A stretch of 64,000 nucleotides of DNA. It comes from Octopus vulgaris (lineage: Eukaryota). Each line of letters begins with the position of its first letter. The stretch's first letter is position 1. Location: the NCBI GenBank assembly GCA_951406725.2, contig OX597824.1:4402001-4466000 (forward strand), read 5' to 3'. The notes under the pieces were generated by a model. The model searched no databases, was not told the DNA's origin, and was given only the letters and a program-made list of their open reading frames with translations. The position numbers and the translations under genes were made by a program. Positions 4,205 through 63,765 of the stretch are shown one piece after another.

Positions 4205-4665
4205 AACATCATCATCATTGTTTGACCGTGGTTGAGACAATAGAATTTACTATGTTACGCTAGACTTCACAGTCCATCATAGCATCACGGATGTCCTGTT
4301 GCTTGATGCCTGTATCCCTGGAGATTACATCAGGGTAGGAGAGTGTGCGCCCTCTGGTATCATGAGCAGATGGCTTCCAGAGGAGAAGAGTAGAAATTAC
4401 CTCGTTTTCAGCTCTACAACAATGTCCAGCAAACTGGACTCTCCTACCTTTCACAAGAGATGATACAGGTAGTAGTTTCCCATATATTTGTACTTTGGTT
4501 GGATGGCGCTTCCATGAGAGATTTTTAGCTCTCATAAGGAGGCGAGTGTAAGTTCCATCCAACCACCTCTCAAGCTTCTTTGATAACGTCCAGGTTTCTG
4601 AGTCATATAGTAGAATTGGTTCAACTGTGGCTTTGAAGATTTTAAGTTTTTAAGTCTTCATACAG
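4205..4665 (-). mobile_element. 5'-truncated RTE/RTEX-type LINE 3' end
   Basis: Minus strand reads KIFKATVEPILLYDSETWTLSKKLERWLDGTYTRLLMRAKNLSWKRHPT...RRVQFAGHCCRAENE...GRTLSYPDVISRDTG, typical of an RTE C-terminus, and ends in a (GAT)n tail. Confidence 0.85.
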
Positions 4666-6620: not shown

Positions 6621-6838
6621 CCAGAAAAAGGATACATCCTTCTATAAACAGGGTACCTGACTATCTCAGGTGACATCTTCAGATGGACACACCATTTCTT
6701 CATGGCATCTTAATCCACTGCACCGTGTGTATGGCAATGCAGAATATTCAAGAAACACATTTAAAAATAGTAATTTTCTAATTTATAGATCAGTGACTAG
6801 TTGTCACTTTCAAAACTATATATTTTGAATGGGAATTT

Positions 6839-6857
6839 GGCAGCGCCACCTCTAGCC
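6839..6857. promoter_or_regulatory. CTCF-like motif
   Basis: ggCAGCGCCACCTCTAGCc approximates the CTCF core consensus (reverse complement of CCACYAGRKGGCGCTG). It sits directly upstream of the structured element. Confidence 0.35.
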
Positions 6858-6867
6858 GAACAATTAT

Positions 6868-7112
6868 TCAGTGCTGATAAAGAGAAATAACCCAGAAATC
6901 ACAATACACAGATATTGTTTTGAGCTGGGTTAGGGTGCTAGATTCCCTTGTTTGAAAATATAAGGACACAAATTGTGTCGTATATCCAACTGGAGACGAT
7001 GTCTCCTGGGGCTAAATTACAGCAACATTAGTCCTAAACCAGGACTGCCATGTTATGTTGGCAAACAATCTTTGCTACATATTTCCTGCTTTGCATCTTC
7101 TCTCAGCACTGA
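6868..7112 (+). ncRNA. Unclassified multi-hairpin element, copy 1 (candidate structured RNA)
   Basis: Closed by a 10-bp inverted repeat tcagtgctga/tcagcactga. Internal stems: taacccag/ctgggtta, aggg/ccct, gacaca/tgtgtc, ggagac/gtctcc, agtcct/aggact, tgcca/tggca. Homologous to 29847-30097. Confidence 0.5.
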
Positions 7113-9624: not shown

Positions 9625-9987
9625 TCTCTTTTACTCTCTTTTACTTGTTTCAGTCATTTGACTGCGGCCATGCTGGAGCACCGCCTTTAATCGAGCAACT
9701 TGACCCCGGGACTTATTCTTTGTAAGCCCAGTACTTATTCTATCGGTCTCTTTTGCCGAACCGCTAAGTGATGGGGACATAAACACACCACCATCAGTTG
9801 TCAAGCAATGCTAGGGGACAAACACAGACACACAAACACACACATATATATATATATATACATATATACGGCGGGCTTCTTTCAGTTTCCGCCTACCAAA
9901 TCCACTCACAAGGCTCTGGTCAGCCTGAGGCTATAGTAGAAGACACTTGCCCAAGGTGCCACGCAGTGGGACTGAACCCAGAACCAT
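9625..9987 (-). mobile_element. tRNA-derived SINE family A (CORE-like centre, internal TA/CA tract), 5'-truncated
   Basis: Reverse complement closely matches the full copy at 34188, with B-box-like ggttcagtccc and (GTAAAAGA)n tail. Confidence 0.9.
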
Positions 9988-14999: not shown

Positions 15000-16320
15000 A
15001 AAGATGCGTCTGTAATAATGCAGAAATAAGGGGAAGAAGAGCGTTTGTGATAATCACAGAGGAACGAGTTTGATGTGTACAGCTGGAAAAATTCTTACGA
15101 GGGTGATTCTTAACCGCATCAATAAGCATGTAGTAAATGGTATATATCCTGAGTCCAGATGTGGATTTCCAGCTGGAAGACGTGATCTTACCCTTCAACA
15201 AGTTCAAGAAGAAGCACATGAGCAAAATACTGACCTATACATTATCAAAAGTTGGTCTTTTGAAATGATAAAAGTAACAGTATCTTTGCGAGAAGGAATG
15301 ATAGCAACAGTGACATCTCATGATCAATGTTCAGAAGCATTTTCTATTTCCAATGGGACTAAACAGAGTTGTGTTTTAGCTCCCATACTTTTTGCCATAT
15401 TCTTTCCGTTGATGTTTCAACATGCTTTTAAGGATTACCGTGGAAAGTTTCAGACAGACAGCAATTTACTAATCCTAAATGGACAAAGCTTCAGATCAAA
15501 GGAAAAGACTAACAAAGAGATTCTAAATGATCTTCTGTTTGCTGACGATTGTGCTTTGATTCCTCATACATTTGAAAGAATTCCGGAAATAATTGACAGG
15601 TAGATCGTGGCAGCTCATGCAAATGGACTATCAGCATTTAGAAGACTGAAGATTTATTCCAACTGAAGCTTAGGACAGAACATACCCAAGTTTCAAATGT
15701 AATAATTGACAATAAGCCATTCAAATGGGCCAAGTCATTTAAATATCTTGGAAATACTGAAAACTTGAAGATTACTCTTGATGTCAAAATCAATATTAGA
15801 CTATCTAAGGCTAAAAGTGCTTTTGGAAAAATTTCCCATCATGTGTGGTATGAACACAGTCAGTTTCAAATCTAAAATAAGTGTATACAAATCTTGTATA
15901 TTCAGCACAATTTTTGTATGAGGCAGAAGCATAGACCCCCACTTCTACAGACAGATAAAAAATTTTGAAACCTTTCGCATGCACTGTCTGTACAATCTCT
16001 ATAACATAAAGTAGCAAGATAGGAACCAAATGCCAAGATTTTAGCAAAATGTGATATCTGCAGCATTGAAAGTACACTGTTGAGAATTCAGCGCAGATGG
16101 GTAGGATATGTTGTTTGAATGGAAGATGACCACATTCCAAAAAGTCAATGAGAGGGATCCTGTGGTAAAGGAAGACTCTTGCTAAGGTACAAGAATAAGT
16201 TGAAACAATCTCTATAGTCCCTACATGTTTAACATGTTGGGAAAGTTATTGTTTAGATCAATCTGAATGGAGTGAAATGTGTCATGATACATGAAAACAA
16301 TTTGAGTTGAAGAAATAGAA
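15000..16320 (+). mobile_element. RTE (BovB-like) LINE reverse transcriptase fragment, inactive
   Basis: ORF 15070-15603 has CTAGKILTRVILNRI...PESRCGF...GTKQSCVLAPILFAIFF...DLLFADDCAL. Downstream interrupted frames give FKYLG and FLYEAEA. Many stops and frameshifts. Confidence 0.9.
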
Positions 16321-17205: not shown

Positions 17206-18101
17206 TTGATATCATAATCATATTTAAGTGATAAGACTGCCAGTTCATCAGGGAGAGGATGGCAGAGTGTGTGACACTCCCATTTTTTCTCATATTTCCT
17301 TATCTCACATCAGATTGGGAATCAAAGCCATACAGGTACTCTCTTTTATCAAGAACTTGCTTTTTGCTCTATGCTGGCTTGTTTTACACTGAAATGAGTT
17401 TATTTGGTATAAAATGTCAATATCTGGGAAGCTGAGGGGAGAAGACAACAAAATGAAAAAATATGCAGAAGAGAAATAATGGACAGGTGTGAGTGATCAT
17501 CACAGGTGGTGAAATGAGATGTGAACAACAGGGTGATGATTGGAGGCTGGAGATGGATGGAAGAGAAAAGGTAGATGCAGGTAGAGTGACAACGTTACTG
17601 TTACTCATCTATAAATCTAGTGATGGATGGTGACTAATACAGTCACACGTAAATAGGTTTCATCATCATCATCATCATCATCATTTAGCGTCCGTTTTCC
17701 ATGCTAGCATGGGTTGGACAGTTCAACTGGGGTCTGTGAAGCTGGAAGGCTTCATCAGGCCCAGTCAGATCTGGCAGTGTTTCTACGGCTGGATGCCCTT
17801 CCTAACGCCAACCACTCCATGAGTGTAGTGGGTGCTTAGAATGATGGTGATAAGTAGGGTGGCTATTTTCTAGTTTACAAGCTTCATATGTGATGGAAAT
17901 ATGGAATAGATATTGACATGTAAAATAAGGTAGTGTAGAGCAGAAAGTAAGCTCTTGACAAAAGAGAGGACATATACGGCTTTGATTCCCAATCTGAAAT
18001 GAGATGAGTAAATATGAGAAAAAATGGGAGTGTCACACACTCTGCCATCCGCTCCCTGATAAACTGGCAGTCTTATTACTTAAATATGACTGTGATGTCA
18101 A
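17206..18101. repeat. ~185-bp inverted repeat pair (17206-17390 / 17918-18101), likely PLE-type inverted ends
   Basis: ggcagagtgtgtgacactcccattttttctcatattt...cagattgggaatcaaagcc is mirrored by ggctttgattcccaatctg...aaatatgagaaaaaatgggagtgtcacacactctgcc. Confidence 0.85.
17660..17837 (-). mobile_element. RTE LINE 3' tail (family C)
   Basis: (CAT)n-tttagcgtccgttttccatgctagcatgggttggac...ggatgcccttcctaacgccaaccactcc. Confidence 0.88.
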
Positions 18102-19469: not shown

Positions 19470-19615
19470 AAATGGTGCTGTGTGGTAAGTAGCTTGCTTA
19501 CCAACCACACAGCTCCAGGTTCAGTCCAACTGTGTGGCACACTCTGGCCTCGGACCCACAAAAGAATTGTCAATGGATTTGGAAGACGGAAACTGAAAGA
19601 AGCCTGTCATATATA

Positions 19616-19668
<53 letters not shown>

Positions 19669-19865
19669 TTGTATGTCTGTGTCTGTCCCCCCACCATTAC
19701 TCGACAACAATATTGGTATGATTACATCCCTGCAACTTAGCAGTTTGGCAAAAGAATAAGTACTAGGCTTACAAAAAACAAGTCCTGGGGTCAATTTCTG
19801 AGACTAAAAGACACTGCTCCAGCATGGCCACAGTCAAGTGACTGAAACAAATAAAAGAATAAAAG
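19470..19865 (+). mobile_element. SINE family A
   Basis: gctgtgtggtaagtagcttgcttaccaaccac head, TA/TG tract, gactgaaacaaataaaagaat tail. Confidence 0.88.
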
Positions 19866-20551
19866 CATAGAAGAATACTGAAATGCCTTTGATCAGAGCT
19901 GCCTGGGGCTAAACAATAATAATAACATAGGCCTACAATCATCACAACTCCAGATCAGGCACAAAAATGAATAAATGCCTACTGGCTTTGCAAGGTCACT
20001 ATCGACTTGAGTCAGAAATGACCTGAGTAAGTTGTTATGGTCAAGTCTTTCTCTTACAAGGAAAAGAGAAAAACTTGATCATAACAGCTACTATTCTTCA
20101 CCTTTGCACAATCAATAACATTTTATCACTTCTCAATGGATAACCATGATTATGAAAACCAAGTCTGATAGAAAAGTCAACTAGCAGATTACTGCAGCAA
20201 TCAAACTTATTGACATTCTACAAACTTTTCTTTATATTAATTGTTGGAGATGCAAACCTTCACCAGATTCCAGACTCCACTGAATGCATAGTCATTAGTT
20301 CAAACCTTACTAATTGTTGTAGAAATTCAGCAAACAGTAAAATGGAACTAAAGCAAATAAAGGAATAAATTGTTATTCTTTCTCTTTTCTTTTATATCTT
20401 TTATCATGGGAATGTTCTGGAAGCTAAGAAAATTATATTTCATACGATTTATTTCAACGGCTCAATGTTCATGTACAACTATCATTCAATTGATTCAAAA
20501 ATGCTTTTTTTGCTAATTAATTTAAGACACATTTAAAACCTATTATTGTAA

Positions 20552-21811: not shown

Positions 21812-22202
21812 AAGTAGCTTGATTACCAACCACATGGTTCTGGGTTCAGTCCCACTGCGTGGCACCTTGGCCTAGTGTCCTCTACTATAGCCTTGGGCCG
21901 ACCAAAGCCTCGTGAGTGGATTTGGTAGACGGAAACTGAAAGAAGCCTGTCATGTAAATGTGTGTGTGTGTGTGTGTGTGTGTGCATGTGTGTGTGTATG
22001 TTTGTATATCTGTTTGTCCCCCCACCATCGCTTGACAACCGATGTTGGTGTGTTCATGTCCCTGTAACTTAGCAGTTCAGCAAAAGAGACCTATAGAATA
22101 AGTACTAGGCTTACAAAGAATAAGTCCTGAGGTCAATTTGTTCAACTAAAGCTGGTGCTCCAGTATGGCCACAGTCAAATGACTGAAACTAACTAACAAA
22201 AG

Positions 22203-22205
<3 letters not shown>
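21812..22205 (+). mobile_element. SINE family A
   Basis: Head, CORE-like ggcaccttgg..agtgtc.tctactatagcc and 3' part all present. Confidence 0.9.
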
Positions 22206-22251
<46 letters not shown>

Positions 22252-24756
22252 ATGTATGCATGGTGGTGGTGGTGGTGGTGGTGGTGGTGAATTCACCCAC
22301 TGAGAATGACACGAGTGATAATGGTTAATTATTATACATCACTGATAAAAGCTAGTATAACTAAATAAAAACAGAATTGATAAAAAGTTGATAAAATCAG
22401 GTGAAATTGGTTGAAATTCTATAAAATTAAGAAAATTAAGAGAAAATTAAGTTAAACGATGGTGACAGACAAGAGTCATTTGTAAAGTTAGAGATCATGT
22501 CTTGACTTGCAACAGTTTCTGGATTAGGTTTAATCTTTGTGCGCTGCACTCTGCACATTTTTTGCTATAAACAACAAAGCAAGATTTGGTCCAACAGCAG
22601 AGGTGACAAACCTCCTGATAGACATTTCTATTTGCTCTAATGAAAAATTTATACAAATATATATATAAAGATGCAGATACAGCTGTGTGGTTAAGAGTAC
22701 AGTTTGTAACAGCATGGTTCTGTGTTCAATCCTGCTGTGGTGCAGTCTGGAAAAAATGTCTTCAACCATAGCCTTCAGCTAACCAATGCCACAGTCTTCA
22801 GATGTCAGTAAAACTTAGTAAATAGAAACTTTGCAGAAAGCTACTGTGCAGACATACAGACAGACAGATGATGGTGATGATGATGATGATGATGAGGAGG
22901 AGGAGGAGGAGGAGGATATATGTGTCTGTTTTCTCTGTCCATGTTGGTGATTATGCTTAAGAGTACAAACCATTGTGGCAAACTGCACCCTTCTGTGTGA
23001 AAGCATAACTTAGAGGTTTGATAAATGGACATCAACAAAATAAATTCCCGACTGGATCAAGTACAAGGTCAGCCTTATCACCAGACACCTTAGAAAGTAG
23101 TGCACCAGCATGACCGTGGTCCAATGGCTGAACGCAGCAAAAGAATACAAGGCTACACTGTTATATGACATGATACCATATACCACATGCATATACATGC
23201 ACATGCATGTTTATGCATGCATGTGTTGCAAGAGTGTGTGTCTATTTCACTGCAATGAGTTTAATGAAGGGCCATTTACATGGCTGCTGAACCAGCTGGA
23301 ATAGCAGCCAAGTCACACACAATTGTCATATAAATGAAGGACACATTGGATAATAATGTAGTCCTGGAACAACTCTGATCAGAAGTTTGCTCAATGAGAG
23401 TTGTGGAGAAACAACAACAACAACAACAACAAAAAGTGTGAAAGCGGTAAGTGCTGCATTACCGAACGCCTGCCACTCCATGGTTGCGTCTGCCACTCCT
23501 ATCCCGTGTCAACAGATAGCTGCATTACAGCTAATCTCAGTGGAACTTGTACTAATTTCATTTGCACAGGTTTCCAGTATAATATGGCTTCGAATATTTC
23601 TAGAAATCTTACAGTCAGGTTAACATGGAGCACCCAGCAGGAGATAAGAGAAAACACTGCTAAACAGCAAGCAGAGCTGAAGCACAACAAAACAACAACA
23701 AAACAAAACCCAAAAAAAAAAAGTAAAAGAGAGAGAAAGAAAATAGGAACTTAAGAAAATACAAGGAACAACAAAAAATAACAATAACAAACACTGCTGC
23801 AATAATGTCTGTAATGACAGTGTTAAAAGAGCATTAAAATAGAATAACAAGAATAAATGGAAAGTTTAGAGAAATGGTGAGATAAAGAAAGCGTGAGAGT
23901 GAAGAATATGGAGTAGAAGAAAGTTGCCATGAATTGCAATAAGAAAACAAGGAAATTCTGGTTGGAAAAATATATGGGAAAATTTTGATTACATATTGAT
24001 CTGGAAGAGCAAGTTAGATGTCAATAATAGGAATAAAGAAATTTCATGGTTAGAGACACTCGTTTACATGAATGTGTATTGTATGTGTTTGTATGTGTGT
24101 GTGTGTGTGTTTGTATATGTGTGTGTGTTTGTATATGTGTGTGTGTGTTTGTATATGTGTGTGTGTGTAGATTTGTAATTCAACAATTGGAAGCATAAAA
24201 CTCTGAGTTACAATTCAAGAAGTTTCAGTTTCTAATAAAATGTATCCATCCTTCTCTGTGTATTGAGTATTTCTTTTGCTTGTAAAACCAATCCATACCA
24301 TCGTACTCACACCCACAACCACACTTGCATATTTACAAACACATATACTCATGCATGCATGCACCACACATACACAGGCACACACACGTATACAAACACA
24401 CAGACACTATAGAAAATAAAAATATAACAATAAAATCGCAACTGAAAATAAATCAGGTACCAATATTTCTTTTAATATTTGCACCTGATTTATTTTCAGT
24501 CGTCATTTTAAGCACGTGCACACGGACACACAGACACACACAATGCACACATACAGACACATACATGCACACACACACATCTGCATTAGAGAACATGCTA
24601 ACAGCTCCAGCTTCTCTGGGACACTTTCATCAGCTGTTGACTGCTGGGGAGGTGGAAGCGAGCGAGAGAAAGAAAAGGGAGAGAAGAGGAGAAAGAGGAG
24701 AAGGAGAAAGGTAGGTAAGGAGAGAGAGAATGACTGAGTCAATATAACATTATACA

Positions 24757-24972
24757 TTCCTTTCTACTATAAGCGCAAGGCCCGCAATTCTGGTGGAAGG
24801 GGTCAGTTGATTACATCAACCCTATTGCTTGACCGGTACTTATTTTATCGACCCTGAAAGGATGAAAGGCTAAGTCGGCCTTGGCAGAATTTGAACTCAG
24901 AATGTAAAGACGATTGAAATGCCACTAAGCCTTTTGTCCAGTGTGCAAACGATTCTGCCAGCTTGCTGCCTC
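24757..24972 (-). mobile_element. SINE family B, full length with target-site duplication
   Basis: Flanked by tcaatataa(c/t)attata on both sides. B-box and central ctttcatcctttcagggtcgataaaataagtacc on the minus strand. Confidence 0.9.
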
Positions 24973-28918: not shown

Positions 28919-29846
28919 TTGTAAACTTGTGCCCATGCAACGTTACCTCTTTGATGGTCCTTGCATCATTTGATGCTGCCATTAACTATTGTTCTTTTTA
29001 TTAGAATCATCAACATCATTTCACATCTGCTTTTCTACGCTGGGCTGGCATGGGCTGGGCAGGTTCTCTGAGGCAGTGGATACCCTTTCTGTTGCCTGCC
29101 CCTTTTGGTCACAACAAAACATATAGGGACACAATCTACTTCTAAAACCAAACTACAGACAGCTATTCTTTTCTTTTTTTTTTTAAAGATGATGGCATTA
29201 AAGAATAACATATTTTCCTAATACATTTCTAGTTTTCTAGGCTAACCGGTGTACACGATTGTACATTTACAAGTATGATGAAGCCTGTGCTTCACTGAGT
29301 GGTTTAAGAAAACTGAAACACATCCAAAGTTGTCTTTTAGAAAAGAACTATAGAAATAATTTGCTGAAAAATTGTTTCTTCCTTACCACAGAATTTTTTC
29401 TAGTTGCCTTTTTGCTGCAAACTACATTAAATGTATTAGCACTAACTTTAAGTTACAGTAACTCTGGCTAGGAAACTGTGACTTCATGTATATAGAGTTG
29501 GAAACATTCTAACTGAAATAAGTTATCAAGTGAATTGCACAGAAAAGCTCTTTTTGTATTAAATTCATTGACATTTTATTATATCACTTTTTATACATTT
29601 TAAAAATATAGAATTCAATTTATTTATTGTATTATAACATTTTTTTGTAATAACAATTTATAATAACAAAGCTTTTTTTTTTATGAGAGAGGATAATGAA
29701 TGTGTAGGACAGTTTATCATAGTTTCTTTGTATTTTTCTACATCATTTTATTTCTGTATAAGTTCAAAATCTATGTACAATATAATTTTTGTTTCTATTT
29801 CTGTTGCCTTCATCTTCAATATACTATCTTTACAGATGTACCAAAA

Positions 29847-30097
29847 TGTACAGGTCTCTCTTATCGAAAACCCGTGATTAGCGTGCGTTGACAAGAGACA
29901 ATAATCTCAAAACTGCAGTCCATGCGTATCACTTAGGTTTTCGAGAGGGGATGACCTCTCTTTGCGAATATCATTAAAGGGCACAAGATTGTGTCTAAAG
30001 CCAGCTGGAGACGATGATCTCCTGGGGCTTAAAAGCTACAGTAACAACCCCAACCCCTAGTGGTTAGCCATATTAAGATGGCTAGTATACTTTACGT
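29847..30097 (+). ncRNA. Unclassified multi-hairpin element, copy 2, between 10-bp direct repeats
   Basis: tgtaccaaaa at 29837-29846 and 30098-30107. Stems: tcgaaaacc/ggttttcga, gagagg/cctctc, ggcaca/tgtgtc, ggaga/tctcc, tagccat/atggcta. Shares cca.ctggagacgatg.tctcctggggct with 6986-7013. Confidence 0.5.
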
Positions 30098-30454
30098 TGT
30101 ACCAAAACTATTCTACATTTAAATTATACTTGCAAACACTATGCTGGTTTTGGTAATTGAAGTTTGGTCACACTGAGGCAGTGGCTCCAAAAACTACAGA
30201 CAACTACATTGACTCCAGTTCTTTGTCTGGTTCTTATTTCATTGACCTCGGCAGAAAGAAAAGCAAAATCCAACTAGGAATAAAGGGGTGGGGTTGGGCG
30301 GTAAACAGAATGTAAAAGGTTAAAACCAAACATCACAGTTTTTGTTTTTTTGCACCAAATCTGTCATCCATTGCCTACACACACACACACACACACACGT
30401 GTGTGTGTGTGTGACTTAGTTTACAGCATAACTATGCAGTATGATGTATATATT

Positions 30455-32660: not shown

Positions 32661-34187
32661 CTTTAGCTTTATCAACAATAGAGGAAAGAACATGAGGTCT
32701 CAGTAAAGTCTGTATGCAGAGAGGCGCAGGATAACCCATCGTAATGGTATTTATACAACCCTGTTAAACAGGAGTGCTTACATAGAGTGCAAATAGCTAG
32801 AGGAATTATCCAAATGAAAGTAAATGGTCTTTAAGACTAATACTTAATAGAAATCTTGCATTGTTTCAGTTGCAAATCTTTCATAATCATTCATATAACA
32901 TGAATAGATAATGCATCAGACTAGATTATTAGACAACTAATGCACATAAATTTTGGCATATATAGATAAAGTGAAGGAGAGATAGGTCACATCTTTTGAT
33001 ATATAGTTCATAAGATTCTTGTTGCTATTTTAGTGTCCTTTGTCTGAAATCTTTCATCACACATCCTGTGACCTCTTCAGAATGGACTAAACAGTCCATT
33101 AGATCCTTTTTCATTTACTGAAAAAATTCCCCTAAAGTATGCTGATGGCACCAGTGTAAATTACTCTAGTCAGGCTCCAACTTTCAGCATCTGCTAGTGA
33201 AATATGCTTTTACAGAATATTTTGAAATTGGAAATAATCCTTAGCTCTAATTTTAGCAGGAAACATGAAATTTGGAGGGGAGGGGGAAATCAATTATTTC
33301 ACTCCAGTGCTCAACAGATACTTATTTTATTAACTCTGAAAGGATAAATGGCAAAGTTGACCTTGACAACAGCAGAGGAACTCAGAACATAAAAAGCCAG
33401 AAGTGCTGCTAAGCATTTTTCCAGGTAAATAATTCTGTCAGCTCACCTCACTCTGTTTCCATCTACCTGTCCAACCATTCTGTTATCTTCATATTCAAAT
33501 ATATTCATACAATCTTACTGCTGTGTGTATGCAAGCATGCATGTGTGGTGAATATTGTAACCTGTGTAATAAGTTTCCTGGTTTCCCTACTCCAAGGTTC
33601 AATTCTTGGTTGTTGCTATTTCGTCTTCTCTGATAATAAATTCTCTGAAAGGTAGGAACTTCCCAACTCTGATCCGATTCCTAATCACTTGTTTATAAAT
33701 TAGCTCTGGTTATGAAAGCTAGAACAATCAATTTTCTCTAACAAATGCATGTGTCAGGTGAAATACACACACACATATACAAGCCCACGTATAAACATGA
33801 ATACGGCTGCATGTACATGTATATATGTTTGTGAATGCATTTTCATATATGCAGCGTGATGCAGCAATGGTTCAATTAACATGAGTGCTCATGTGCTGAT
33901 TAATATGCATGATAAGCAACAAGAAATTCTGCACCACTTCACAGCTGCATCCATAAGTGGCTGCTCCAGTCATCTCGCATCTTGCTGCATCTCTGCATAT
34001 ATGTGTTTCAAAAAAAAAAACACTCAATTGTGTAATCTGTGTAATGCTGTCATGATACAATAATTTATTCAGTTAGATAACAGATGCTATTTGTTGTTGA
34101 AGTTGTTTTTTTGGCCCCAGGTCAGCTCTGTTTGAGCAAACCCAGGATTGAAACCATTCTAGTCCTGACCATTTTGTATTATCAATT

Positions 34188-34598
34188 AGGCGCAGGAGTA
34201 GCTGTGTGGTAAGTAGCTTGCTTACCAACCACATGGTTCCTGGTTCATTCCCACTGCATGGCACCTTGAGCAAGTGTTTTCTACTATAGCCTTGGGCCGA
34301 CCAAAGCCTTGTGAGTGGATTTGATAGACGGAAACTGGAAGAAGCCTGTTGTATATATATGTATATGTATGTGTGTGTGTTTGTGTGTCTGTGTTTGTCC
34401 CCGCAAAATCGTTTGATAACCGATGGTGGTGTGTTTATGTCCCCCGTAACTTAGCGGTTCGGCAAAAGGGCCCGATATAATAAGTACTAGGCTTACAAAG
34501 AATAAGTCCTGGGGTCAATTTGCTCGACTAGAGGCAGTGCTCCAGCATGGCTGCAGTCAAAATGACTGAAACAAGTAAAAGAGTAAAAGAGTAAAGAG
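34188..34598 (+). mobile_element. SINE family A, full length
   Basis: ggcgcaggagtagctgtgtggtaag (A box), ggttcattccc (B box), CORE-like segment, TA/TG tract, 3' domain and (GTAAAAGA)n tail. Confidence 0.92.
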
Positions 34599-39200: not shown

Positions 39201-39274
39201 TGTCTTTCCTGTAATGTGCAAGAAACTATCAATATTGTTCAGTTCAGTTCACTCACATTTTTATATCTTTTATT

Positions 39275-39660
39275 TTTCCCTTCTTTCAGTCATTAGGCTG
39301 TGGCCATGCTGGGGCACCACCTTGAAGAACTTTTAGTTGAATGGATTAACCTCAGCACTTGTTTTTTTTTTTTTTAGCCTGGTACTTATTCTATCATTCT
39401 CTTTTGCCGAACTGCTAGGTTAGGGGACATAAACACACCAACACCAGCTGCCAAATGGTAGTGGAGGACAAACATAGACACAAACACACACACACACATG
39501 ACTGGCTTCTTTCAGTTTCCATCTGTCAAATCCATTCGCAAGGCTTTGGTTGGCCTGAGGCTAGAGTAGAAGACACTTGCTCAAGGTGCCACACAGTGGG
39601 ACTGAACCTGGAATCAAATGGTTATGAAGCAAACTTCTTACCACACAGCCATGCCTATGC
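39275..39660 (-). mobile_element. SINE family A variant
   Basis: Reverse complement of head and body; ggccatgctggggcaccacc tail variant. Confidence 0.85.
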
Positions 39661-46361: not shown

Positions 46362-46500
46362 TTAGTAGCTTGCTTACCAACTACATTGTTCCAGGTTCAG
46401 TCCCACTGCATGGCACCTTGGGCAAATATCTTCTACTATAGCCTCGGGCCGACCAAAGCCTTGTGAATGGATTTGAGAGACGGAAACCGAAAGAAGTCTG

Positions 46501-46550
<50 letters not shown>

Positions 46551-46750
46551 TTATGTGTCTGTTTGTCCCCGCCATCACTTGACAATTGATGTTGGTGTGT
46601 TTACATCCCCATAACATAGCAATTTAGCAAAAGAGACTGATACAATAAGTACTACATTTACAAAGAATAAGTTCTAGGGTCAAATTGTTTGACTAAAGGT
46701 GGTGCTCCAGCATGGCCACAGTCAAATGACTGAAACAAAAATAAAAGAAT
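46362..46750 (+). mobile_element. SINE family A
   Basis: Head, CORE-like part, (TA)n and 3' domain present. Confidence 0.9.
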
Positions 46751-47336
46751 ATACATTTATGGTAGAACTTCTTTCAGTCTCCATTTATGAGATCCAATCA
46801 CAAGAGTTGACAGCCCAATGCCATAGAATTGCCACTGTTATGTTACTAGCTTCATGTTATGTTACTGCAGAGCCCTAGATTTCCAACAGTGGGACTGAAT
46901 CGAAGATTAGTGGATGAAAAGCATGTCTGTGCATATGTGTGTGCATGTATGCATGCATGTGCATGCGTGCATGCATGTGTATGGGTTTGCGTGTATATGT
47001 GTGTGCATTGTGAAGCCATGTTGTTATGGAGTTTGGGTTTGTCTCCACTTTACACTACTTTGCCTAAGTGCCTTTGACCATAGCTTTAGATCGATCCCAT
47101 ACTTTGTGAATATAAGCGACTCATAAGAAATTGTGCTAAAGCTTCTAAGATTTAAGGTACCTTTGACTCAAGGTTCCACCCTTGTCAAACACATTGTTGA
47201 GTTGACAAAATGATTCTGCCCAAGGATTAGGAACAATTATCTGAGAAATACCTAGCCACTTATATTATAATTCAATGAGCATGTAGTGTCATTGATCTAA
47301 GAACTGGAACACTTGCTCTTCAAAGATATAGAAAGG

Positions 47337-50905: not shown

Positions 50906-52440
50906 TCGGGAAGGAATGTTACAGGAGAGTTTGAGCATTCCTGAAATCCAAGTTAAATGCATGGAAAAAAGGCGTTAGCTAATTCCTAAGTAGTTCTGGT
51001 TGTTATTTATAGTTTCAATGAGTTGAACTGGAATATGAGTAAAATAAGGAAGATTGACAGGAAAATCTGTGAGCTGCTGACTTGCAATAAGATGCACCAC
51101 CCAATGGCAGAGACAGATCGTCTTTACCTACCCAGGGCTCAAAGAGGCCAAGACTTGATCCAATTTGAAATCTCTTACAAAAACCACCACAATTGGACTG
51201 GCAAAAAATCTTGAAACATCTAATGGCTGGATGCTAAAGCTTGATGAAAATTACAAAAGATGTAAGAAGCTTCATTCTGTTATGAAGGAGAGCAAAATCT
51301 TTTCTAGTGAGTTTACACATAATACCCAGATTGAACAGTATGATGGAAGTGCAGCAACTGTAGTTGCAAAGAGGGCGAAAACAATAGCAAAACAAAATAT
51401 GTTTGAACAATTGGCTGATAGGTGGGAACAAAAACCTCTGCATGGCAAATATGTGGTCCATAGCAAACAAGCTGATGTAGACCAGAAGCACACCCATCAG
51501 TGGCTACGGAGATCAGGGCTAAAGGCAAAGAGTGAAGGCTTTATCTTGACTGCTTAAGATCAGAGCTTATTGACCTGTAACTACCAAGCCAATGTGATGA
51601 AATATGGTGTAGACGATGGGATAGAAACAGTAGAGCACCTAATCTCTGGATGTATGGTTTTAGCACCTGTAGAGTACAAATCAAGGCATAACAGAGTTGG
51701 ACAATATCTACATTGGAAATCAAAACTGCTGACAAATGGTACAAGCACCACCCTGAGGTTATAACTGAGGGAGAAAATGTAACTATTCTTTAGGACTTCC
51801 CATTATGTACAGACTGGACCATCAAAGCAAATAAACCAGATGTTGTTGTGAAAGGCCCAAACAATAAAGTCTGTTTATTGACTGACATGAGCATTCCCTG
51901 TGACCATAATATCACGGCAAAAGAAATTGATAAGCTCAGAAAATATAAAGATCTGCTAATTGAAATTGAAAAGATGCAGCATCTGAAGAGGGTTACAGTA
52001 CCAGTAATTGTAGGAGCACTTGGAATGATCAAAAAAGAAACTGAACTTTATTTAAGAATGACCCTTGGCTTACCCATCCACGCAGGAAGTGCAAACGATT
52101 GCCTTAACTGGTACATCACACATACTGAGAGGAGCATTGTTACTGTGAATTTTCTTTCCCTTTTTCCCATTTATTTTCTTTGTTTACTTATTTATTCATT
52201 TACTTTTTATATTTATTTTATTTATTTTTAGAGATTTTTTCTATTTTTCTTTTTTATTTTTCATTTTTCTTTGTCTTTCTGCCTCCTTCTTCTCTACCAC
52301 ATGACTTTGTAAATGAACAATTTAGTGTTTATTTTAATGGCCTACCAATGTACACAGTACGTTTCTCTGCCCTAGGTGTCAGGAAGACACTCAGCAAGAA
52401 ATGGAAACAGAATTGAAAAATGATGATAATGAAAATGAAA
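50906..52440 (+). mobile_element. 5'-truncated R4/Dong-clade LINE (post-RT region, RLE, 3' UTR), inactive
   Basis: KIDRKICELLTCNKMHHPMAETDRLYLPRAQRG; WEQKPLHGKY..QWLRRSGLKAKSEGFILTA*DQ; ETVEHLISGCMVLAPVEYKSRHNRVGQYLHW; ANKPDVVVK..CLLTDMSIPCDHNITAKEIDKLRKYKDL..PVIVGALGMI. Confidence 0.92.
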
Positions 52441-63160: not shown

Positions 63161-63575
63161 TAGGTGCAGGTATAATTGTGTAGTAAGAAGCTTGTTTTCC
63201 AACCACATGGTTCTGGGTTCAGTCCTACTGTGTGTCACCTCAGGCAATTGTCTTCTATTATAGCCTTGGGCCGGCCAAAGCCTTGAGAGTGAATTTGGTT
63301 GATGGAAACTGAAAGAGGCCTATCATATATAAATGTGTATATATCTTTATGTGTGTGTCTTTGAGATTGTGTTCATTCATACACCACTGTCCAACAACCA
63401 GGGTTGATGGGTTTACGTCTCTGTAACTTAGTGGTTTGGCAAAAGAGACTGATAGAGTAAGTACCAGATTTTTAAAAAATAAGTACTGGGGTTGATACAT
63501 CCAGCAAAAAATTCTATAAGGGGGTGCTCCAGAATGGCAGCAGTCTAATGACTGAAACAAGCAAAAGATAAAAGA
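63161..63575 (+). mobile_element. SINE family A variant
   Basis: Head ggtgcagg...tgtgtagtaagaagcttg...ggttcagtcc, body, and gactgaaacaagcaaaagat tail. Confidence 0.87.
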
Positions 63576-63765
63576 TATGCATATATGTATAAATTTACGT
63601 ATACGTGTTTATGTGCATTTGTGTGTGTGTATATATATATGTATATATATACACACACACACACATACATATATGCATATTACATATACATATATCTATA
63701 TACACACATATCTAACAATTATATATATATAACATGCACACATATATATACTCACACACACATAC

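Follow-up and report, generated by a model that had tools for sequence, protein, structure and literature searches.

Decayed hammerhead retrozyme copies in the Octopus vulgaris genome and the conserved RNA fold downstream of their ribozymes

INTRODUCTION

Animal non-LTR retrozymes have been defined at the sequence level as elements with short (150-450 nt) monomers (PMC7229834). In the available text of this and a later study (bioRxiv 10.64898/2026.07.22.740005), they are portrayed as non-coding units of approximately 350 nt and low GC content arranged head-to-tail, each with one canonical type I hammerhead that has a weak, palindromic helix III, and with thousands of dispersed copies, a rod-like predicted fold and Penelope-like elements alongside; the octopus family described here is alike in all of these respects. 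The later study argues for an origin of retrozymes from Penelope-like elements, and of the predicted Xenopus retrozymes, one of nine dimers tested is said there to have cleaved in vitro. Penelope-like elements themselves are reported to insert as partial tandems that have a tail at one end and are accompanied by an inverted, 5'-truncated arm (bioRxiv 10.1101/2021.04.23.441226), those of Schistosoma possess a U3-A8 variant of the hammerhead (PMC4209133), and the tail of the Poseidon element PAc is given as the stretch between two internal start sites of reverse transcription, both of which lie past the hammerhead in a stem loop rich in A and C (PMC11167929). The available text of the squid genome paper counts 235 Hammerhead_1 loci (PMC6962438). 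A search of the main text of the literature found no paper on octopus retrozymes or on the conserved block presented below.

The DNA analyzed here, called the window, is a stretch of 64,000 nt from O. vulgaris (assembly GCA_951406725.2, contig OX597824.1, positions 4,402,001 to 4,466,000, forward strand). A first-pass annotation, made from the letters alone, had singled out two diverged copies of a multi-hairpin element within it as a candidate new family of structured RNA. Judged by its sequence, the element is instead a non-LTR retrozyme, of a kind already described and representing no new class of RNA; the octopus family falls within the sequence-level definition cited above. Unlike the elements in the available text of the retrozyme papers, it occurs mostly as dispersed insertions of one to three units with inverted arms, the core of its hammerhead toggles between C3-G8 and U3-A8 among lineages, and it is known here from sequence alone. 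The octopus family further has a conserved domain of several hairpins that is tied to its two fixed 3' ends, a feature of which the available text of those papers gives no description. The host group is likewise absent from that text.

THE WINDOW COPIES AND THEIR REPEAT FAMILY

The central block that the annotation had seen in both stretches, here 6962-7027 and 29977-30046, was recovered by blastn with 81.7% identity over 71 nt (E 1.5e-10) and by nhmmer (E 7e-10), and its view that both are structured held, copies 1 and 2 folding better than shuffled sequences with z values of -5.0 and -4.0, respectively. The boundaries first proposed, 6868-7112 and 29847-30097, were corrected by alignment to relatives (Table 1). 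Positions 7080-7112 proved to be flanking DNA of copy 1 that relatives lack, and the 10-bp outer stem of this copy (6868-6877/7103-7112) is the element paired by chance with its flank. A scan of the window revealed no third noteworthy copy beside these two.

Genome-wide, the supposed two copies became thousands. With the 2.8 Gb genome (227 contigs) as target, 2,178 and 2,229 candidates were obtained at first look with copies 1 and 2 as queries, and the 40 of each that were scored shared 85-98% identity. Exact patterns of the shared block were found at 1,343 (strict), 6,646 (loose) and 1,496 (third lineage) places with reversed controls yielding 0 each, giving more than 8,000 dispersed places (6,646 + 1,496). 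Three main lineages, approximately 50% alike in sequence, were recognized. Longer relatives, which the annotation had suggested examining for open reading frames (ORFs), turned out to be head-to-tail tandems of monomers with periods of 350, 356-358, 353 and 361-362 nt: in the loci examined, copies exceeding one unit run on into the next monomer and never into coding sequence, no ORF for reverse transcriptase (RT) and GIY-YIG domains lies within units, and monomer joins monomer without any ORF between. The joint between units is also present in genomic tandems. The two window stretches are mutated, truncated copies from two lineages of an abundant non-coding repeat.

Table 1. Coordinates of features of the two window copies
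Feature	Position	Strand	Description
Copy 1	6759-7079	+	5'-truncated lineage-1 retrozyme copy (350-nt monomer); extent from blastn alignment to relatives and to a genuine tandem monomer
Copy 1, 3' end	7079	+	3' end site 1, +173 from predicted cut
Copy 1 hammerhead, decayed	6860-6918	+	Predicted cut after 6906
Copy 1 helix I	6868-6873/6907-6912	+	Hammerhead parse
Copy 1 core	6874-6880	+	G8A at 6879; hammerhead parse
Copy 1 helix II/loop II	6881-6894	+	GAAA at 6895-6898
Copy 1 loop III	6899-6904	+	Non-palindromic
Copy 1 block	6965-7062	+	Hairpins 6965-6979, 6986-7012, 7031-7045, 7047-7062
Copy 1 closing helix, 5' strand	7019-7026	+	Pairing partner in missing tail
Copy 2	29850-30100	+	5'-truncated lineage-2 retrozyme copy (356-358-nt monomer); 3' end at site 1
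Copy 2 hammerhead, decayed	29874-29932	+	Predicted cut after 29920
Copy 2 helix I rod extension	29864-29872/29936-29944	+	Strands pair
Copy 2 helix I C-A mismatch	29886/29922	+	
Copy 2 core	29888-29894	+	U3-A8
Copy 2 helix II	29895-29908	+	G12A at 29909
Copy 2 loop III	29913-29918	+	Palindromic
Copy 2 block	29980-30082	+	Hairpins 29980-29995, 30000-30028, 30067-30082
Copy 2 closing helix, 5' strand	30038-30045	+	
10-bp direct repeat	29837-29846 (left), 30098-30107 (right)		Candidate target duplication around copy 2

One very young subfamily (loci L161, G000:C1:38582500-38586500, and L162, C1:21557500-21560500) comprises near-identical 353-nt units in tandem and as inverted arms within (TA)n, with a canonical C3-G8 core.

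Two other kinds of repeat were considered and rejected. A SINE derived from tRNA is contradicted by the architecture, a tandem in circular permutation whose ends are fixed at two sites, and ARAGORN found 0 tRNA genes in eight loci, a weak test for decayed heads. For a MITE, the apparent terminal stem of copy 1 would need flank that relatives lack, and the junctions of inverted arms are variable.

The window also holds an unrelated repeat of approximately 360-440 nt, probably a SINE, in at least seven copies (9626-9987, 19477-19876, 21812-22253, 34187-34591, 39257-39649, 46364-46760 and 63161-63618), and two more short repeat families near 17660-17837 and 24744-24971. A LINE fragment at 15019-15603 (+) gave an RVT_1 match (E 9e-8), and two others, at 4260-4649 (-) and 51159-52231 (+), resemble retrotransposon C-termini by eye with no informative Pfam match.

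THE TYPE I HAMMERHEAD

Intact relatives carry a predicted type I hammerhead, one per monomer, in which the conserved core is present in type I order (C3 U G A N G8 A or its U3-A8 covariant, GAAA, UH) together with helices I-III. A strict type I scan was positive for 9 of the 30 loci of lineage 1 and for 26 of the 30 of lineage 2, among which two pairs overlap one place; in the window it found nothing. The annotation had recognized no hammerhead, and yet mutated type I hammerheads are discernible at 6868-6912 and 29882-29926. Copy 1 has suffered G8A, a mismatch in helix I and the loss of its loop III palindrome; in copy 2, a mismatch in helix I accompanies G12A. Both G8 and G12 take part in catalysis by the hammerhead, and with G8A in the one and G12A in the other, it is understandable that the ribozyme was overlooked. 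By the same token, the window copies are likely to be catalytically dead single arms.

Comparison with Rfam did match a described family: Hammerhead_1 (RF00163) was covered over its whole model by L162 with an E value of 2.3e-6 at 32.2 bits, which is below the gathering score of 34. This model missed both window copies, lineage 1, and the lineages with a U3-A8 core. Rfam at gathering score gave 0 matches over the window, E-value scans of both window copies returned no hammerhead, and a similar scan of 12 loci, intact lineage-1 and -2 copies among them, produced 146 matches, mostly microsatellite-driven, none of which was a hammerhead.

Covariation was assessed with 19 representatives drawn from 24 clusters of 95 copies plus the window copies. 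Pairing was found in 91.7% of cells and double changes in 21 of 33 pairs, values equaled in 0 of 500 shuffles and compared with 36-46% in slid controls, the structures counted having been drawn from the same sequences as were tested and from few independent lineages. Double changes affected all 11 pairs of helix I, three of four in helix II, one of two in helix III, and the 3-8 pair. This last core pair was UA in 10 representatives, CG in 8 and broken in 1, namely window copy 1. At 10.1-11.1, seven representatives had GC and four some other standard pair, and the remaining eight, lineage 1 included, were unpaired. The base of helix II in lineage 1 (e.g., L027:1507-1545) is A-A or A-G rather than G-C, and C-A is seen in some other subfamilies.

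With the hammerhead on the plus strand and helix I varying through G-U pairs, the plus strand is identified as that of the RNA, as the annotation had proposed. The 5' stems that it had matched between the copies are another matter: that of copy 1 (6888-6895/6925-6932) is not homologous to that of copy 2 (29864-29872/29936-29944), since the former uses loop II/helix II and a private variant that a single one of the 28 lineage-1 copies parsed (out of 34 examined) displays, and the latter truly extends helix I. The register of helix I had a predicted probability of only 0.01 in one lineage-2 copy, for which another register was preferred.

Loop III was palindromic in 65 of the 95 copies. The predicted energy of self-duplexes was approximately -12 kcal/mol for 6-nt loop III palindromes vs. 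+2.0 for copy 1, which fits the dimeric cleavage described in the available text of PMC4209133.

THE CONSERVED DOWNSTREAM BLOCK

Downstream of the hammerhead, the block is kept in all three main lineages and is more strongly conserved than the hammerhead helices. Where both are retained, it lies 96-105 nt beyond the predicted cut, and in the loci examined it forms part of the hammerhead monomer. That the block is conserved through pairing, as had been surmised, is supported by double changes at three pairs of the central hairpin, two of the last hairpin and three of a helix that closes the structure. In this closing helix, a conserved ACAG segment pairs with the sequence between two 3' end sites (see below); its 8 pairs are paired in 92% of cells, and it was predicted with a probability of at least 0.69 in 12 of 14 tail-bearing copies. 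For the 14-pair set containing this helix, the cell and score measures beat 500 of 500 shuffles, and the pair-count measure was equaled by 102 of 500. Hairpins B, D, F and G were left out of the covariation count because alignments shift register there. With the closing helix joining ACAG to the stretch between the end sites, site 1, which lies just after a conserved AC, would be placed inside the junction that the helix closes; site 2 lies beyond the next hairpin.

The conformational switch that had been thought possible received little support. The alternative pairing was predicted at 0.01 or less in 13 of 14 copies that keep their tail, and at 0.65 only in truncated window copy 2; on these folding predictions, the switch is an artefact of truncation.

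No Rfam family matched the block in the window copies and loci scanned. The closing helix was preferred to a pseudoknot in which the conserved ACAG would pair with the central hairpin. When a pattern was designed to capture more variants of pairing in that hairpin, it matched 33 places, largely an unrelated repeat, vs. 47 for its control. A more divergent copy of the block was observed at L230:2025-2200 (minus strand; covariance model E 0.007), with no hammerhead seen upstream.

INSERTION ANATOMY

The ends of copies were mapped in 87 non-overlapping loci, 67 of them taken by pattern in positional order and 20 hand-picked for divergence. Of 148 3' ends, 126 fell within two windows at +165-182 and +215-235 from the predicted cut, which together cover approximately 11% of the unit and were set after a first look at the ends. 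The two sites, at +173 and approximately +222, are thus about 50 nt apart, and their distances from the cut are maintained across the lineages despite the divergence of these. Among 47 head-to-head inverted pairs, 32 combined site 1 with site 2, 4 used the same site twice and 11 had an end elsewhere. The footprint of Penelope-like insertion is present in full: copies are truncated at their 5' side, tandems are partial, the inverted arm is 5'-truncated as well, and one end alone bears a tail. A (TA)4 run occurred in the 3' flank of 16/40, 17/30 and 20/35 ends in three lineages, the background being 188 of 3,479 20-mers; lineage 1 had such a run at 1 of 43 ends only and shows no (TA)n preference. 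To test for one template per insertion, as with a circular template, copies were compared with their partners within the locus, and the partner was the nearest or tied relative in only 15 of the 38 comparisons of inverted arms and 10 of the 23 of tandem units.

At the 5' junction of copy 2, 3 extra bases adjoin a 10-bp direct repeat (Table 1) that resembles a target duplication, a single case. To our knowledge, such duplications are usually absent from insertions of the Penelope-like type.

RESIDENT PENELOPE-LIKE ELEMENTS

A GIY-YIG search of the genome gave at least 6,136 candidates, and among the best 150, which were scored, were many intact ORFs of 781 amino acids with RVT_1 and GIY-YIG domains. 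The resident Penelope-like elements sampled possess their own minimal hammerheads and (TA)n-flanked ends. From these best 150 candidates, 60 partly overlapping stretches around GIY-YIG matches were drawn and searched by blastn, profile HMM and covariance model, and no autonomous element with the block in its own 3' end was found in them. The two matches that these searches did give, at L109 and L154, look like separate insertions near Penelope-like elements.

One young, many-copy family has intact 781-amino acid RT and GIY-YIG ORFs at L151:1745-4087, L152:1664-4006 and L153:2140-4482, and its 3' end carries a minimal U3-A8 hammerhead with two ends approximately 60 and 90 nt after the cut. In another (L154:4306, L160, L243:861 and L250:858), position 4 of the hammerhead core is a C; L249 has the usual U.

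In the available text on Penelope-like elements (PMC4209133; bioRxiv 10.1101/2021.04.23.441226; PMC11167929), the same 5' truncation, partial tandems and inverted 5'-truncated arms are described, as are the tail on one end, two internal end sites past the hammerhead, the U3-A8 variant of the core, and targets that are rich in AT or consist of (TA)n. The octopus family differs from them in having no ORF and a hammerhead of canonical form (6-bp helix I, 4-bp helix II, 6-nt loop), where theirs is minimal. Its tail is approximately 50 nt compared to 30-40 nt, and its ends lie 173 and approximately 222 nt after the cut compared to approximately 85-92 nt for the first PAc site, as computed from the coordinates given in PMC11167929.

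DISCUSSION

The earlier proposal of a functional RNA spread by a mobile element stands insofar as the RNA is structured, functional and mobile; the unnamed new family has been replaced by the type I hammerhead retrozyme. We consider it highly probable that the two stretches are decayed animal non-LTR retrozymes which were likely reverse-copied by the enzyme of a Penelope-like element starting at the shared block. Tandem loci would be transcribed into RNA, in which two hammerheads would pair via the palindromic loop III and self-cleave the transcript into monomers that are probably ligated into circles. The downstream fold would then be bound by the RT/GIY-YIG protein of a Penelope-like element, which would cut both strands of an AT-rich target, and cDNA would be primed at site 1 on one end and at site 2 on the other, with synthesis running round the monomer.

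The part of the block in this process is held with less confidence. With its closing helix paired to sequence between both end sites, the fold is a plausible signal for recognition and initiation by an RT, as suggested by correlation and analogy. In its stronger form, to which we give somewhat less than an even chance as a whole, the block would be a cis-acting RNA domain of two hairpins and a multi-way junction, with the closing helix reaching into the tail, that recruits the Penelope-like RT and determines where it starts, once within the junction and once just past it.

The principal alternative, which is rather unlikely though by no means negligible, is that the element is a true retrozyme whose block serves some role other than recognition by the RT, whether in the ligation of circles, in stability or export, as a promoter element or in binding a host protein, the fixed ends being then set by short sequence motifs only. 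The link between the block and the adjoining ends is correlative, two ends and hammerheads are present in the autonomous elements sampled without any such block, and several helix positions of the block are invariant in sequence, which would fit recognition by protein or at the level of DNA. Against this reading, the closing helix reaches across end site 1 to pair with tail sequence, with compensatory changes, the cut-to-end distances are kept across lineages only about 50% alike, and the Poseidon protein is reported to bind just the corresponding region of its RNA (PMC11167929, available text).

It is improbable that the copies are solo pseudo-LTRs, i.e., the 5'-truncated ends of a long autonomous Penelope-like element. 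The anatomy of insertion is identical to that of autonomous elements, Xenopus retrozymes are related to pseudo-LTRs according to the available text of bioRxiv 10.64898/2026.07.22.740005, and lineage 3 and a resident Penelope-like family share a U3-A8 core with a four-base palindromic loop III. Against this, over-length copies enter another monomer and not coding sequence, the 781-amino acid protein matched only 4 of 190 loci by tblastn, and the monomer does not align to the 3' ends of the autonomous elements sampled. Slightly more improbable again is a new and independent RNA family (a second ribozyme, a switch or an IRES-like element), to which the lack of any Rfam match and the conservation of the block beyond that of the hammerhead helices might point, but the block rides within the hammerhead monomer at a set distance from the cut in the loci examined, the pairing of the supposed switch is gone once the tail is present, and the topologies of the HDV, twister, pistol and hairpin ribozymes, compared by inspection of their consensus folds, do not fit.

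With the class of element known and its link to Penelope-like elements already proposed in print, the window copies themselves are ordinary dead repeats. The value lies in the family, which offers thousands of natural insertions, a clean footprint of two start sites, and a covarying fold situated exactly at them. How the RTs of Penelope-like elements choose their RNA and internal start sites has been addressed in one in vitro system so far, going by the available text of PMC11167929, and the fold provides a concrete structure for mutation and rescue by which this question becomes testable. If the block does prove to be a cis-acting domain, the Penelope 'tail' would be explained in structural terms, a portable RNA tag for telomerase-related reverse transcriptases would be at hand, and lineages of such low similarity would supply natural covariation for modelling.
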